DNA of 64,000 nt, from the sequence record PV467749.1, one strand, 5' to 3'. Source of the DNA: a phage. Below are positions 1 to 18,825 of this stretch, piece by piece. A model generated the notes under the pieces. That model was not told where the DNA came from, did no database searches, and was given only the letters and a program-made list of their open reading frames with translations. Both the position numbers and the translations under genes were made by a program. Each line of letters begins with the position of its first letter. Position 1 is the first letter of the stretch.

Positions 1-939
1 GAAGATAACAGTAGTGATTGTCAATTGTATGAAGAGAAAGGTACTGGAAAAGTTTTTATCACTGGTAACACGAAGGCATTCACTGGTGTAACTGATAGAA
101 AAACTTTGTGGACGGACTGTACTACGTGGATAACATCAAGTGGTATTAATGTTTCTGATATAAAATACATGAGTAGTTTTTATGATATGAAGGTGAATTT
201 GATAACAAACGATGGTACATTGTATTGTTGTGGAGCTAACAATATATCGAACATATCATCATTTGGTGATGGCACAAACATTAATTCTTTTAACACATTC
301 AAAAGAGTAGATACTATAACTTCGGTTAAAAAGGCTGTTGGTAACATTTATTTGCGAGAAGATAATACTTTATGGGGTTGTGGTTTTAACTATTACTACC
401 AGTTGGGCACGGGTAATCAAACTTCTATTACTGGGGTGACGATGATTTCTTCGGATGTTATAGATTTTAATGTAAGTTATCAGAGTACATTTTTTATCAA
501 ATCGGATAATAATTTGTACGCTTGTGGTAAACAGTTCGGTGCACAATATGGGAACGAATTTGGTACAGGTGGTACTTCCTCTTCTACTGATATACAATAT
601 AAAACTCCGACATTATTGAGTTCAGGAGTTTATACTCTATATACTTGTGTTGGTAACATGGCATCACATATTGTCAAAGCAGATGAAGTTCTATATGCTT
701 CTGGATCGAATAGGTTTGGGCAATTAGGTGTTGGTAATAATAATAATCAGTACTCCTATACTCCTTCATATACTTCGTTTAATACTTCGTGTAATTTGGT
801 ACGCACTCCATCTGGTTCACTTATACTTACTGACACTTCGAAGTTATATTATTCGGGTGCTTCATTTGTAGTAATGGGTGGTGGTGCTGGACAGAACGTT
901 CTTAATTATACCGAAGTCGATATGTCATTTGTGCAGTAA
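1..939 (+). CDS. RCC1-like repeat beta-propeller protein, array member 1 (5' end outside window)
   Basis: Frame open to position 1 (TTG at 25 is not a real start); repeated blade motifs LYCCGANN..FGDG, LWGCGFNYYYQLGTGN, LYACGKQFG, LYASGSNRFGQLGVGN; followed by cassette terminator. Confidence 0.8.
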   Translation, partial: EDNSSDCQLYEEKGTGKVFITGNTKAFTGVTDRKTLWTDCTTWITSSGINVSDIKYMSSFYDMKVNLITNDGTLYCCGANNISNISSFGDGTNINSFNTFKRVDTITSVKKAVGNIYLREDNTLWGCGFNYYYQLGTGNQTSITGVTMISSDVIDFNVSYQSTFFIKSDNNLYACGKQFGAQYGNEFGTGGTSSSTDIQYKTPTLLSSGVYTLYTCVGNMASHIVKADEVLYASGSNRFGQLGVGNNNNQYSYTPSYTSFNTSCNLVRTPSGSLILTDTSKLYYSGASFVVMGGGAGQNVLNYTEVDMSFVQ

Positions 940-948
940 ATTAATATG

Positions 949-978
949 CCAGTACTTGAGTACTGGCTTTTCTTTTTG
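949..978 (+). terminator. Intrinsic terminator: hairpin CCAGTACTTGAGTACTGG + T-run
   Basis: Perfect inverted repeat CCAGTACT/AGTACTGG with 2-nt loop followed by CTTTTCTTTTTG, 10 nt after stop at 937-939. Confidence 0.65.
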
Positions 979-984
979 TATTAA

Positions 985-1012
985 ATATAGTATAATGAAT
1001 AAGGGAGGAAAT
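985..1012 (+). promoter_or_regulatory. Cassette promoter-like element (TATAAT 991-996) + RBS AAGGGAGG (1001-1008)
   Basis: Conserved TAAATATAGTATAATGAATAAAGGAGG block present before most array genes; no canonical -35 at 17 bp. Confidence 0.5.
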
Positions 1013-2122
1013 ATGTTACCTTTTGTAAGAATGGTTAAGTACGGGAATATTGCACCAGTACCGAAAAAAATAAAGAAAGTTATAGCAGGATATGATAATT
1101 TATATGTACTATATGGTGATGGTTCGCTATATGGTTGTGGAATCAATAACTATCAACAGTTAAATATTGATGGAACTGCTACACAAAATAATTGGGTACT
1201 AATTACCAATGGTGTTAGTAATGCATGGGCTGGTGGATACAATATTTTATATTTGAAAGAAGATAAATTTATAATGCACGGAACTAATGTCTCATTAGGT
1301 TTAGGAAATACTACAATTCCATTAGGTGGAGTAGATGTAACTTCTTCATTCCCAGATATCTCTAATATTAAAATGATATCCATTGGTTTTGATTCAATGC
1401 ACTATGTTAGTGCTGATGGTACAACTGTATATGGAAGAGGTATGAACACAAATGGTTCTGTTGGTTCAGGTAGTACTTACTCACAGAGTACTTTCACTTC
1501 AGTACTGAATAATGGAACTAATCAGGTTATTGATATATTTGGTAACGTTAATAATACAGTGCTTCTAACATCGAATGGTGAGCTTCGAGCATGTGGGACA
1601 AGTGCTTATGGTTCTATAGGAAATGAAACTGGTAAGTGGACATCGTTTGGTTTAAAATTATCTGGCACTAAAATAATGGGTGGTAATGGGTATAGTACGC
1701 TTGCATATACAAATTCGGGAATGTACCACTCAGGGTGGCAGTTAAATGGGGAACTAGGAAATGGTTTAAATACTAACGTACAGGTATATCCATTTCAATT
1801 TAACTCTAAAACGATAGATAGCAAGATAGATAAAATTGCCAAATCATCATCTGGGTCATATGTTAACATGTACTCAACAACAGAAGGAAAGATATATACG
1901 ACAGGTTCGTTTGGTAAAAACGGGTCAACTACTGCATTGAATTTGTTCACCAATACATTAACACTTATAAATTACAATCCAGATACCGCCTCGTTGTATA
2001 CGTGCACAAACTTCAGTGTTGTGTATGATGGTAATGAAACTATTGCTGTAAGTGGTAGTCCTACATATGTACCAGGGGGCGTTGCCGCTAATAGATGGAC
2101 TACAATTCCATTACCCAAGTAA
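1013..2122 (+). CDS. RCC1-like repeat beta-propeller protein, array member 2 (N-term MLPFVRMVKYGNIAP)
   Basis: Start moved from track ORF 878 to ATG 1013 (conserved MLPF start, RBS AAGGGAGG 5 nt upstream; upstream part of ORF translates the terminator/promoter); RCC1-like repeats. Confidence 0.85.
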   Translation: MLPFVRMVKYGNIAPVPKKIKKVIAGYDNLYVLYGDGSLYGCGINNYQQLNIDGTATQNNWVLITNGVSNAWAGGYNILYLKEDKFIMHGTNVSLGLGNTTIPLGGVDVTSSFPDISNIKMISIGFDSMHYVSADGTTVYGRGMNTNGSVGSGSTYSQSTFTSVLNNGTNQVIDIFGNVNNTVLLTSNGELRACGTSAYGSIGNETGKWTSFGLKLSGTKIMGGNGYSTLAYTNSGMYHSGWQLNGELGNGLNTNVQVYPFQFNSKTIDSKIDKIAKSSSGSYVNMYSTTEGKIYTTGSFGKNGSTTALNLFTNTLTLINYNPDTASLYTCTNFSVVYDGNETIAVSGSPTYVPGGVAANRWTTIPLPK

Positions 2123-16939: not shown

Positions 16940-16946
16940 AATAATG

Positions 16947-16972
16947 CCAGTACTCAAGTACTGGCATTTCTT
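16947..16972. terminator. Bidirectional terminator hairpin CCAGTACTCAAGTACTGG between convergent genes
   Basis: Perfect palindrome flanked by A/T runs; lies between stop of + gene (16937-16939) and stop of - gene (16973). Confidence 0.55.
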
Positions 16973-17623
16973 TTACATATTATATAATGTGAATGCAGTC
17001 ACTTTACCAGTTGTTGTTAGTTCATTATAAAGATACTCCAAGATTCTCGCACACTCTAAGTATATCTCGATATCATCATGAATAAGTGAGTACTGAAATA
17101 GCTGTTCTTCAGGTAATTTGTATTGACTTCCTTTTAATGAATTGAGAATATCTTTCACATCATCAAGTACTGGGTAAAGTACGAAATCTTCATCATATTT
17201 TGAAGCAATAAATTCAAATCCACCACCATCAGTACTAGATATACCAATCAGTACTTTATCAATCAAGTTAATGTTTATATAACGGTTGTGATTTGGGTGA
17301 ATTGAAATCTCAAACATACGAGTACTGTTACAATCAACATCAATATACAAATATACATCATTGAATTTATAAGTTAAACAACCGTACTCAAGAAAATCAG
17401 AACAAATAATTGATGAGTTTTTTCTTGTCTCTGCGTAATGCATCTTGATATTCTTTTCACGCATAAGTAATTCGAACTTTGCACTAAACTTGCCACCAGC
17501 AAGATAGTTAGTATTAGGACGTTTGTAACTTGCAACTGGTCGGTGGGATGATGTAAAGTATTTTTTTGTGAATCGTTTCTGTTTAGTGAAATATTCTTGA
17601 TAGAACTTACTTCTTTTATTCAT
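16973..17623 (-). CDS. Hypothetical protein, EExFQxS C-terminal-motif family
   Basis: 216 aa, opposite orientation, inserted between array members 14 and 15; basic N-terminus; C-terminal ..EEQLFQYSLIHDD.. motif shared with at least 12 other minus-strand proteins. Confidence 0.7.
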   Translation of the reverse strand: MNKRSKFYQEYFTKQKRFTKKYFTSSHRPVASYKRPNTNYLAGGKFSAKFELLMREKNIKMHYAETRKNSSIICSDFLEYGCLTYKFNDVYLYIDVDCNSTRMFEISIHPNHNRYININLIDKVLIGISSTDGGGFEFIASKYDEDFVLYPVLDDVKDILNSLKGSQYKLPEEQLFQYSLIHDDIEIYLECARILEYLYNELTTTGKVTAFTLYNM

Positions 17624-17700
17624 GAGTACCTCAATTAAATCGCTGTAAAATTGTACATTATAAAATGATTAAATAAAGTATAACACAAGGAGATTTTATC

Positions 17701-18825
17701 ATGTTACCTTTCGTATTGTTATTTGATTATGGGAACGAAAAACAAGAAAGTTCTTATGATGTTAGTGTATATGGAAACAATAACTACATTTTAAATAAAC
17801 AAACTGGAAACCTTTTTGCATCCGGTGCTGCGGCATTCATGGGTGATAACACAGTTAAGTATTATATTACCCAAATAGAATCAAATGTTCATAGCTGTGA
17901 GATAGGTTTCCTATCATCATGGATAATTAAGAAGGACAAAACTGTTTTCATTTTAGGAAACAAAAGCAGTATAGGATTAACTGGTTCGACAACATCATGG
18001 TTCGAAATTACAAATTTATTTTCTGCTGTTCCTGAAATATGGGACAACCTATTTGAATGTAAAGTTCAATTGGGATATAACTGTATACGTGTTATGACAC
18101 CACTAGGATCAATCTATGCGATTGGTACAAACACTTATGGTGCATTGGGTACTGGTACTACATCCTCATCAACTTCGTTCGTTAAAAGTGGTGCTGTGGA
18201 TGCTGTACGCATGGAATCAACAGAACGTTCAGTGTTCTATCAAAACAGTTCTGGACAATGGTTTGGATGTGGTGATAACACATATGGTATACTAGGTCTA
18301 GGAACTACCGCGAGTCGTGTAAACTCATACACCGCACCAGTATGGACTAATGCAGAAGCTGTTAGCTTCTCTAACCGTGGGATCATATACAGCCTCAATG
18401 GTACTCTATACTCATGTGGTGACAAAGTTAATGGTCAGCTAGGGGATGGATATACACAAAGCATAGACGCTGCCAGGAGCACACCATACACCATAGGAAC
18501 CGCATTCCAAATTGGTAAGGCAATAACATCAGCTACACAAGCATCAGCCAACGTATTCATTGGTAAAGATAATAAGTTCTATGGTACTGGTAGTATTGCT
18601 GCTGGTATAAATGGTAGTACTAGTGCTGCATTAAGTAAAGTTACTGCGTTATCAGCAGCACTACCACCTGACATTACATACAATGATATTATAACATTTA
18701 ATACAGGGACCGTAACTTTTATTCAAGCAAAAGGACAACTATATTATGTTGGTAGAAGAACTTACATAGATAATAGTTCAGACGTTACCACACAGTTCAG
18801 TGTAATTGGTGGCTTAGATAATTAA
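17701..18825 (+). CDS. RCC1-like repeat beta-propeller protein, array member 15 (N-term MLPFVLLFDYGN)
   Basis: 374 aa; RBS AAGGAG 17687-17692; variant N-terminus; motifs IYAIGTNTYGALGTG, WFGCGDNTYGILGLG, LYSCGDKVNGQLGDG. Confidence 0.85.
   Translation: MLPFVLLFDYGNEKQESSYDVSVYGNNNYILNKQTGNLFASGAAAFMGDNTVKYYITQIESNVHSCEIGFLSSWIIKKDKTVFILGNKSSIGLTGSTTSWFEITNLFSAVPEIWDNLFECKVQLGYNCIRVMTPLGSIYAIGTNTYGALGTGTTSSSTSFVKSGAVDAVRMESTERSVFYQNSSGQWFGCGDNTYGILGLGTTASRVNSYTAPVWTNAEAVSFSNRGIIYSLNGTLYSCGDKVNGQLGDGYTQSIDAARSTPYTIGTAFQIGKAITSATQASANVFIGKDNKFYGTGSIAAGINGSTSAALSKVTALSAALPPDITYNDIITFNTGTVTFIQAKGQLYYVGRRTYIDNSSDVTTQFSVIGGLDN

Follow-up and report, generated by a model that had tools for sequence, protein, structure and literature searches.

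Multiple copies of RCC1-like genes have been listed for the jumbo coliphages 121Q and PBECO4, and gp001 of phage GAP32 was reported as a virion protein (PMC5259590). Eleven RCC1-like proteins were described in phage phAPEC6, where they were speculated to take part in the organisation of DNA in the head (PMC7247149), and two proteins noted in the fEgEco12 paper as among those that differ most between phages of one species belong to this RCC1-like family. The family corresponds to phrog_4219, and more than 30 genomes were found in which its genes are labelled 'regulator of chromosome condensation' or 'DNA condensation protein'. The present analysis concerns an array of genes of this family at positions 1-18825 of sequence record PV467749.1, a stretch of phage DNA of 64,000 nucleotides (nt) that is called the window. 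The array is an already described feature of a published family. An earlier sequence-only reading of the window had not recognised it as a described phage system; the two papers, the annotated genomes and phrog_4219 overturn that statement, and the database check proposed at that time recovered similar arrays in relatives, so the family is not undescribed.

The window is identified from its sequence as DNA of an Asteriusvirus (121Q/PBECO4-type) jumbo coliphage. It was found to match 37 jumbo phages (33 of Escherichia and 4 of Salmonella), and those checked were Asteriusvirus. The best match, WPEC3, was 98.9% identical and covered only 41% of the array, and the set and order of cassettes in PV467749.1 were unique among the records searched. 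The array was collinear with the arrays of WPEC3, UE-S1 and phAPEC6, and its orthologues were 82-99% identical. The G+C content of the window was about 35%, and the coding strand and the GC skew were both found to flip at about 18.8 kb.

The new elements described here are the cassette grammar of the array, a fold-independent N-terminal tag, the retention of this tag in virions, and the position of recombination junctions within an island formed by leader and tag. In the papers that could be searched, the family is mentioned only descriptively; tag, cassette structure and recombination junctions were not found there. It is tentatively proposed, with slightly less than even confidence, that Rak2-like jumbo phages possess a general, transferable virion-address tag of 12 residues (MLPFxRMxxYGN followed by a Pro-rich linker), which would load any binding domain onto a common site as a natural phage display, and that the cassette array evolves by recombination at tag and leader and forms most of the structural proteome that varies between close relatives.

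The N-terminal tag and its retention in virions

The members of the array are numbered m01 to m15 in their order along the plus strand. The 14 visible starts were found to encode MLPF(V/A)R(M/L)(FD/VK)(Y/F)GN, the sole departure being m15 with MLPFVLLFDYGN. The pairwise protein identity of the bodies was 21% on average (range 15-35%). The pairwise nucleotide identity was 1.00 at bases 1-10 and 0.72-0.79 up to +40, followed by a background of about 0.30 from about +50, whereas upstream of the start it was 0.5-0.8 back to -50 against a flanking background of about 0.30. The identity of third codon positions was 0.74 in codons 1-12 versus 0.36 in codons 13-40. The diverged bodies and shared 12-residue starts named in the sequence-only reading were thus recovered, whereas the near-identical leaders it also named are present in canonical form at only 10 of the 14 starts.

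The consensus of the tag was found to be M-[LI]-P-F-x-R-[MIL]-h-x-Y-G-N (12 residues; h, hydrophobic). Among 83 proteins of seven phages and five genera, P3 and F4 were conserved in 100%, followed by N12 in 94%, Y10 in 92%, G11 in 90% and R6 in 86%, and the tag was kept across genera although the bodies were only 25-35% identical. The tag of GAP32 gp001 was MLPFSRIIQYGN. Five tagged tandem genes were found in Yersinia phage fHe-Yen9-04 and at least 14 in Salmonella phage Munch (MIPFARILDYGN). The conservation of the tag at the amino-acid level across genera with differing codons (MIPF in Munch, MLPF elsewhere) points to a constraint on the peptide.

The tag was also found on bodies of other folds. 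It was present on Gly_rich_2 bodies (phrog_4474) in Munch_544 and UE-S1_207, on phrog_6011 'virion structural protein' bodies in Munch_540, GAP32_002, CBB_549 and CBB_553, on Kelch propellers in CBB_550, CBB_552 and CBB_554, and on Laminin_G_3 bodies of the ConA-like lectin fold in CBB_548, CBB_551 and CBB_247. The uncultivated phage IMGVR_UViG_3300031417_000002 (355 kb) was found to contain, at 6413-8416 of the stretch examined, a tagged RCC1+Kelch fusion of 667 amino acids (aa) with an RCC1-like propeller at residues 29-269 followed by a Kelch propeller at residues 380-590, that is, two propellers per tag. A homologue of the phrog_6011 body in the unrelated Cronobacter phage CR3, which sits among NAD-metabolism genes and tRNAs and thereby gave no clue to location, did not contain the tag.

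A degenerate DNA pattern of the tag matched 21 stretches in IMG/VR, of which 18 lie in jumbo contigs of 348-378 kb. The remaining three were a 109-kb contig with tandem tagged open reading frames (ORFs) of RCC1 length and two short ORFs on small contigs, and the latter two look like chance matches. No tag match in Alcyoneusvirus (RaK2/K64-1) was found in this pattern scan or in two protein searches of a phage collection. By these comparisons, the tag is specific to this jumbo phage group.

In the AlphaFold2 model of m14, residues 1-14 had a predicted local distance difference test score (pLDDT) below 50, followed by the presence of a Pro-rich stretch I-A-P-x-P, and the tag is predicted to be disordered and to lie outside the propeller fold. 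A velcro-strand reading, in which the tag is a strand of the last blade, was rejected because the tag is disordered in the models of both m14 and m13 and is present on non-propeller folds. A T4-like protease site after the tag was also rejected, no conserved Glu or T4-like protease motif being found at this place in the tagged sequences compared. The alternating F4, R6, hydrophobic residue 8 and Y10, followed by G-N, suggest a possible mode of binding via strand addition.

Tagged proteins were found in published virion proteomes. In phAPEC6 virions, 8 of the 11 counted RCC1-like proteins were detected with 1-5 peptides each (PMC7247149), namely gp003, gp005, gp006, gp007, gp009, gp010, gp549 and gp551, and gp005 is the orthologue of m14 (92% identical). 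In the supplement on phage JP4, JP4_577 and JP4_581 were detected with 1 peptide each. The proteomic check proposed in the sequence-only reading is therefore answered by existing data, with members detected in phAPEC6, GAP32 and JP4 virions, and its suggestion of a host-interaction or virion-carried role fits these data.

In phage CBB, 8 of the 10 tagged proteins (247, 536, 537, 548, 549, 551, 552 and 553) were detected in virions by mass spectrometry, some of them at 35-51% coverage, and about 10% of all CBB ORFs were detected; the binomial estimate for the enrichment of tagged proteins was p ~5e-7. The CBB supplement was found to contain the tryptic peptides LFEYANVIIPPNYK (CBB_536) and LLQYGNK (CBB_553), both of which are preceded by Arg. 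These peptides start at residue 7 of the tag, which shows that the tag was not removed in maturation. Six structural proteins of CBB have no counterpart in GAP32, and five of them were tagged; the sole GAP32 structural protein absent from CBB was the tagged RCC1-like gp001. Tagged proteins thus account for most of the variable structural proteome between CBB and GAP32.

Propeller bodies, cassette layout and evolution of the array

Matches to Pfam PF00415/PF13540 above the curated cut-off were found in 8 of the 10 members scanned (m01, m03, m05, m07, m09, m11, m14 and m15), whereas m04 was found to contain sub-threshold RCC1 matches only and m13 no Pfam match. A profile of 22 family members matched solved RCC1-like domains at 1e-38 for UVR8, about 1e-30 to 1e-35 for HERC1/2 and RPGR, 1e-27 for RCC1 and 2e-5 for BLIP-II, the last being a weak match. 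The RCC1-type propellers read from a blade motif (..GQLG..) in the letters alone were upheld by this profile, although the motif as written was only loosely matched. The E-values of the match to phrog_4219 were 1e-101 for m14, 3e-56 for m04 and 3e-16 for m13.

The AlphaFold2 model of m14 had a pLDDT of 91.6, a predicted template-modelling score of 0.88 and about 28 strands, and the strands that close the propeller lie at residues 22-27 and 369-376. It matched UVR8 in Foldseek with a template-modelling (TM) score of 0.77 and an E-value of 2e-21, and its identity to RCC1-like domain structures was 16-19%. The model of m13 (pLDDT 58) was found to contain blades in the first 265 residues or so, followed by an unmodelled region at 267-417. 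Structure prediction, as earlier proposed for the seven-bladed propellers, thus agreed with the expectation for m14 and gave a half-confident model of m13, which speaks neither for nor against a complete propeller. The propeller fold is confirmed for the family as a whole and, by a predicted model, in three dimensions for one member (m14), not for each member.

ORF listing and translation showed 15 family members in 1-18825, all on the plus strand, of which 13 were intact (369-449 aa), m01 was clipped by the window edge and m10 was frameshifted. The gene m01 (1-939) has lost its 5' end and was found to contain RCC1 and RCC1_2 matches above the Pfam cut-off; it shares 97% identity with the gene that opens the array of WPEC3 and that starts MLPFVRMFDYGN, so that the array probably begins at m01. 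It is followed by the tagged RCC1-like genes m02 (1013-2122, 369 aa, tag MLPFVRMVKYGN), m03 (2191-3318, 375 aa), which WPEC3 does not contain at the same position, m04 (3389-4510, 373 aa), whose UE-S1 orthologue contains the same body with another tag subtype, and m05 (4582-5763, 393 aa). The gene m06 (5838-6968, 376 aa) heads an operon-like trio with m07 (6979-8181, 400 aa), which lies after a 10-nt gap and contains no promoter or terminator of its own, and m08 (8190-9299, 369 aa), which lies after a gap of 8 nt.

The tagged gene m09 (9370-10539, 389 aa) is followed by m10 (10613-11792), in which a frameshift was found near 10740. The tagged ORF of m10 (10613-10792) ends after 59 aa, and the body resumes in the +1 frame at 10716-11792 as a separate untagged ORF of 358 aa; because WPEC3 carries the identical split, this is an inherited true lesion and not a read error. 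The tagged RCC1-like genes m11 (11864-13042, 392 aa), in whose place WPEC3 contains other cassettes, and m12 (13113-14288, 391 aa), whose nearest paralogue is m09 (35%), are followed by the tagged m13 (14368-15717, 449 aa), the most divergent member, and by m14 (15788-16939, 383 aa), a tagged and predicted seven-bladed RCC1-like propeller. The outlying member m15 (17701-18825, 374 aa) carries the variant tag. The genes had been described as 15 consecutive plus-strand paralogs; the number stands, whereas they are not strictly consecutive, as a minus-strand ORF of 216 aa (16973-17623; phrog_34359) lies between m14 and m15. The position of this ORF at the distal boundary of the array was found to be kept in WPEC3, UE-S1 and phAPEC6, and one further member (m15) was present beyond it in PV467749.1 and WPEC3. 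The ORF was considered as a conserved partner and rejected, since g526, which occupies this place in Yersinia phage fHe-Yen9-04, is not homologous to it and no Pfam match was found.

The spacers of about 70 nt were found to contain a G+C-rich hairpin GCCAGTACT..AGTACTGGC with a T-run, followed by the presence of a TAAATA-containing box and of AAGGAGG at 5-7 nt before the ATG. In the leader of m02 (940-1012, plus strand), the hairpin GCCAGTACTTGAGTACTGGC with its T-run (948-967) is followed by the box AAATATAGTATAATGAATAA (983-1002) and AGGAGG. The same layout is repeated on the plus strand at 2123-2190, 3319-3388, 4511-4581, 9300-9369, 10540-10612, 11793-11863, 13043-13112, 14289-14367 and 15718-15787. 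The 20-nt box was found in 10 exact copies in the 64 kb, all within the array, against 0.08 expected by chance. The leaders of m06 (5764-5837, plus strand; hairpin 5766-5795, TGTAAATACATTATAAT, GGAG) and m15 (17624-17700, plus strand; GATTAAATAAAGTATAAC, GGAG) were divergent and kept the TAAATA, which was present in 12 of the 14 array leaders. No leader was found at m07 and m08, and because these genes follow after gaps of only 8-10 nt, m06-m08 look like one operon.

In phAPEC6, TAAATA was found 25-55 nt before the start codon in 15 of 19 upstream regions of structural genes, among them the genes for major head protein, prohead protease and baseplate wedge, and it was absent upstream of the late sigma-factor gene and the Clp-like gene of this phage; from the base composition we estimate that chance alone would give about 0.08 occurrences in a region of 70 nt. 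An ATAAATA before structural genes of CBB and GAP32 was likened to the T4 late promoter TATAAATA (PMC5259590). A scan for sigma-70 promoters was not enriched (83 sites versus 99.6 expected), which indicates that the leaders are not ordinary host promoters. Because TAAATA precedes the phAPEC6 structural genes, a T4-like core is present in CBB and GAP32, and sigma-70 sites are not enriched, the array genes are, judged from these motifs, most likely separate late transcription units.

A consensus scan found terminator-like hairpins in 13 plus-strand spacers, and 25 sites overall versus 8.1 expected. The stem sequence (GCCAGTACT / AGTACTGGC, with the palindrome AGTACT inside) was found to be nearly constant, beyond structure alone, in the hairpins at 948-967, 2129-2147, 3326-3344, 9306-9324, 10547-10565, 15724-15742 and others. 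This conservation exceeds the needs of a terminator and might be the product of gene conversion or point to a further role. The hairpins at 11797-11822 and 18830-18856 both scored as terminators on either strand.

Comparison by blastn with WPEC3 and UE-S1 showed collinear blocks of 95-99% identity, which were found to end 34-49 nt past the ATG of the next gene and to start in the leader or where the preceding gene ends. Compared with WPEC3, the array has m03 and m04 in addition, m11 and m12 are replaced, and m13 and m14 stand in swapped order. The tag subtype was found to differ between orthologous bodies, as in m04 (MLPFVRMFDYGNEVPDPSSGFRIIST) and its UE-S1 orthologue (MLPFGRMVKYGNIAPDPSSGFRIIST), each genome preferring its own subtype. 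In our reading, leader and tag are homogenised inside each genome, and cassettes are exchanged at the leader/tag island. The copy number ranged from a single gene in GAP32 and five in Yen9-04 to about 10 in UE-S1, 15 in PV467749.1 and about 18 in WPEC3; for phAPEC6, the count was at least 12 tagged ORFs. Disrupted copies were found in m10, in a 68-aa remnant in 121Q and in a 52-aa remnant in phAPEC6. The GenBank annotation of phAPEC6 (MK817115.1, 1-16000) was found to omit tagged ORFs whose start positions are 3, 2434, 6063 and 7325, and the ORF at 7325 encodes 244 aa of the glycine-rich class; given these unannotated ORFs, the published count of eleven is probably an underestimate.

The ratio of nonsynonymous to synonymous divergence (dN/dS) was calculated by the Nei-Gojobori method for six orthologue pairs and in 60-codon windows. 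It was 0.18-0.22 in the three pairs with dS of at least 0.2, and 0.21 and 0.57 in two pairs of low divergence. Site-wise diversifying selection was unsupported at this resolution, with dN/dS of 0.18-0.57 in the pairs whose divergence was measurable and no 60-codon window above 0.4. The orthologues are under purifying selection and the cassettes are maintained. The sequence-only reading had spoken of a 'diversifying' family, which holds for old diverged paralogues and cassette turnover and is at odds with the purifying selection on orthologues (0.18-0.22). By these sequence comparisons, the diversity is one of old paralogues and of cassette gain, loss and reordering, not of fast site-wise change.

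The array is closed by the hairpin at 18830-18856 (both strands), which is terminator-like in two directions and lies exactly where transcription of the plus strand meets that of the minus strand and the sign of the GC skew is reversed. The region 19000-64000 was found to contain nearly exclusively short minus-strand ORFs (80-200 aa), as in the early or hypothetical-gene regions of Rak2-like phages, and no family members or tags were found in it. Right after the array, 18862-21301 (minus strand) was found to contain seven tandem ORFs, whose products of 104-123 aa all carry a strongly hydrophobic segment at the N terminus, and a trio of their paralogues (28-29% identity) is present at 25021-26056. 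In CBB, a run of 'putative membrane proteins' (CBB_539-546) likewise adjoins the array of tagged genes.

Placement of the tagged proteins and rival explanations

The array is read, with confidence and doubt in equal measure, as a set of late-expressed, virion-carried accessory binding proteins on one modular plan, which would be docked by the tag and probably lie outside. The plan of the cassette comprises a terminator hairpin, followed by a T4-type late core TAAATA with a strong Shine-Dalgarno sequence, the 12-residue tag, a Pro-rich linker and a paralogue-specific, predicted seven-bladed propeller. As an address peptide, the tag would dock all paralogues, and the tagged proteins of other folds, to one common acceptor site on the particle, and a single virion would show a mixture of binding heads. 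These heads would most likely be outside, on the capsid or on 'hair' appendages of the tail, with ligands on the host surface or in the environment, and the leader and tag island of about 110 nt would supply the homology for cassette gain, loss, reordering and tag exchange. The docking role of the tag, the outside location and the adhesin function are what we infer from the architecture, and the external heads are the more speculative part.

Several observations hint at the outside location. Lectin-type and Kelch cargo is present in sister phages, and bacterial homologues of the propeller were found joined to Big_2, fn3, TIG, pilin-type and T9SS domains; by analogy, both may point to surface-exposed binding. 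In another phage, a protein with the annotation tail fiber was found to include an RCC1-like domain. The 13 intact members were found to have an isoelectric point (pI) of 4.8-8.5, about 6% Lys+Arg, and Lys+Arg about equal to Asp+Glu, and the Ser+Thr+Asn content of the members was 25-32%; this neutral-acidic, Ser/Thr/Asn-rich composition may be another such hint, and a basic DNA- or histone-binding character was not found. The CBB authors sought whisker components among the CBB structural proteins absent from GAP32, five of six of which are tagged. Also counted toward this location were the hairy appendages of capsid and tail, tipped with small globules, that have been reported for phAPEC6, 121Q and CBB.

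These hints are to be set against a number of opposing points. Few peptides were counted (1-5 per protein in phAPEC6, a single one for each JP4 protein), and abundant late proteins could co-purify with virions. CBB is hairy and contains no RCC1-like gene, so the propellers are not required for hairs. Propellers are mostly monomers, whereas known receptor-binding proteins are trimeric. The low pLDDT of the tag shows only that AlphaFold2 failed to place it, and a high-confidence model was obtained for one member only (m14).

The low-abundance association with virions would also fit proteins packaged inside the head, possibly in the inner body of phAPEC6, with the tag as a capsid-targeting signal like that of T4 (CTS) and the bodies ejected as effectors or anti-defence proteins. 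The architecture of the array is that of T4 internal-protein loci (own promoter, shared N-terminal peptide of about 10 residues, unrelated bodies), as reportedly described by Repoila et al. in 1994 and by Mullaney and Black, and the turnover of the repertoire among close relatives fits an arms race with host defence. An inner-body rod has been reported in phAPEC6, and RCC1-like proteins were suggested by the authors as its candidates (PMC7247149). This explanation is nevertheless considered unlikely: the tag stays on mature CBB virion proteins whereas the T4 CTS is cleaved off, no conserved Glu or protease motif follows it, ConA-like lectin and Kelch cargo is typical of extracellular binding, rigid 40-kDa propellers would have to unfold to traverse the tail tube, and the low peptide coverage speaks against a bulk component of the inner body. 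More doubtful still is an origin as non-structural late cytoplasmic proteins, acting as decoys or inhibitors and contaminating the preparations, with a tag that serves translation or folding, for example chaperone recognition. The low peptide counts would agree with it, codons 1-12 are conserved including third positions, which could reflect a constraint on translation initiation, and the RCC1-like BLIP-II is a tight protein inhibitor (of beta-lactamase), albeit with the weak profile match given above. Against this stand the tagged proteins in four independent CsCl-purified virion proteomes and the detection and coverage found in CBB; moreover, the tag is conserved as amino acids despite the differing codons of Munch, and a constraint at the level of mRNA would leave the invariant P3 and F4 unexplained.

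The annotated function, organisation of the 350-kb genome in the capsid by analogy with eukaryotic RCC1, is regarded as very improbable. It is favoured by the domain name, the database annotation and the suggestion made for phAPEC6 (PMC7247149), whereas the phage proteins are not basic in the composition test given above. In sister phages, the bodies found at this locus and behind this tag include lectin, Kelch and glycine-rich ones; CBB, which contains no RCC1-like gene, packages a genome of similar size, and the copy number ranges from 1 to about 18 at similar genome sizes. Eukaryotic RCC1 is the guanine-nucleotide exchange factor of Ran, and its name reflects a cell-cycle phenotype and not DNA compaction; to our knowledge, bacteria have no Ran, and E. 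coli and its phages no Ran homologue. The 'DNA condensation' label is thus unsupported beyond the domain name.

The gene family is therefore known but misleadingly annotated in dozens of therapeutic-candidate jumbo coliphages. If the proposal of a tag-docked external display is true, the shared address peptide explains the carriage of 10-18 different binding modules per genome and pinpoints the main variable component of the particle (five of six and one of one tagged between CBB and GAP32), and the tag offers a simple means of locating the proteins and perhaps of engineering jumbo phages for display. The proposal also bears on the 'hairy' appendages seen in phAPEC6, 121Q and CBB. An internal location would instead make the proteins a large ejected effector repertoire, a finding of no less interest.

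Comparison with known systems

The RCC1-like 'DNA condensation' family of Asteriusvirus and Rak2-like phages (121Q_234-248, PBECO4, phAPEC6 gp001-010/549-551 and GAP32 gp001) is the family of the array, and locus and layout were the same in WPEC3, UE-S1 and phAPEC6. There is no difference in kind, and only the set and order of cassettes are particular to this genome.

In the internal-protein (IP) loci of T4, the genes have their own promoters, the loci are polymorphic, conserved 5' sequences act as recombination sites, and the CTS is cut by the prohead protease at a conserved Glu. The array resembles these loci in the short shared N-terminal peptide on unrelated bodies (here RCC1, Kelch, LamG, Gly_rich_2 and phrog_6011), in the promoter of each gene, in the polymorphism of the locus among relatives and in the conserved 5' recombination sites. 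It differs in that the tag is retained, is not followed by a protease motif and has no sequence similarity to the T4 CTS, and in that the bodies are large binding domains whereas the T4 proteins are small and basic.

The principle of an N-terminal docking peptide is known from the receptor-binding protein RBP2 of branched tail fibres (KP32-type; models of phiKp24 and RaK2; PMC13352976, PMC9700779). The likeness lies in a short conserved N-terminal peptide kept in the particle, with interchangeable specificity modules on one site in the RBP2 systems. The tagged proteins differ from RBP2 in being predicted single-chain propellers or lectin domains and not trimeric beta-helix depolymerases, in their number of up to about 18 per genome, and in the position of their genes outside the tail-fibre module, adjoining the terminal repeat.

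With RCC1, UVR8, HERC1/2, RPGR and BLIP-II, the array members have the seven-bladed RCC1-type fold and the repeat signature in common, a likeness of fold only and not of function. Unlike the eukaryotic RCC1-like proteins, the phage members contain no basic chromatin-binding tail and carry an added N-terminal address peptide. The immunoglobulin-like capsid decoration protein Hoc of T4 is comparable as a dispensable-looking binding domain on the virion that may aid adherence, an idea that was raised by the CBB authors for whiskers, the external placement being the presumed part of the likeness for the array. The array members differ from Hoc in their fold, in their repertoire of many paralogues and in their attachment by a peptide tag.

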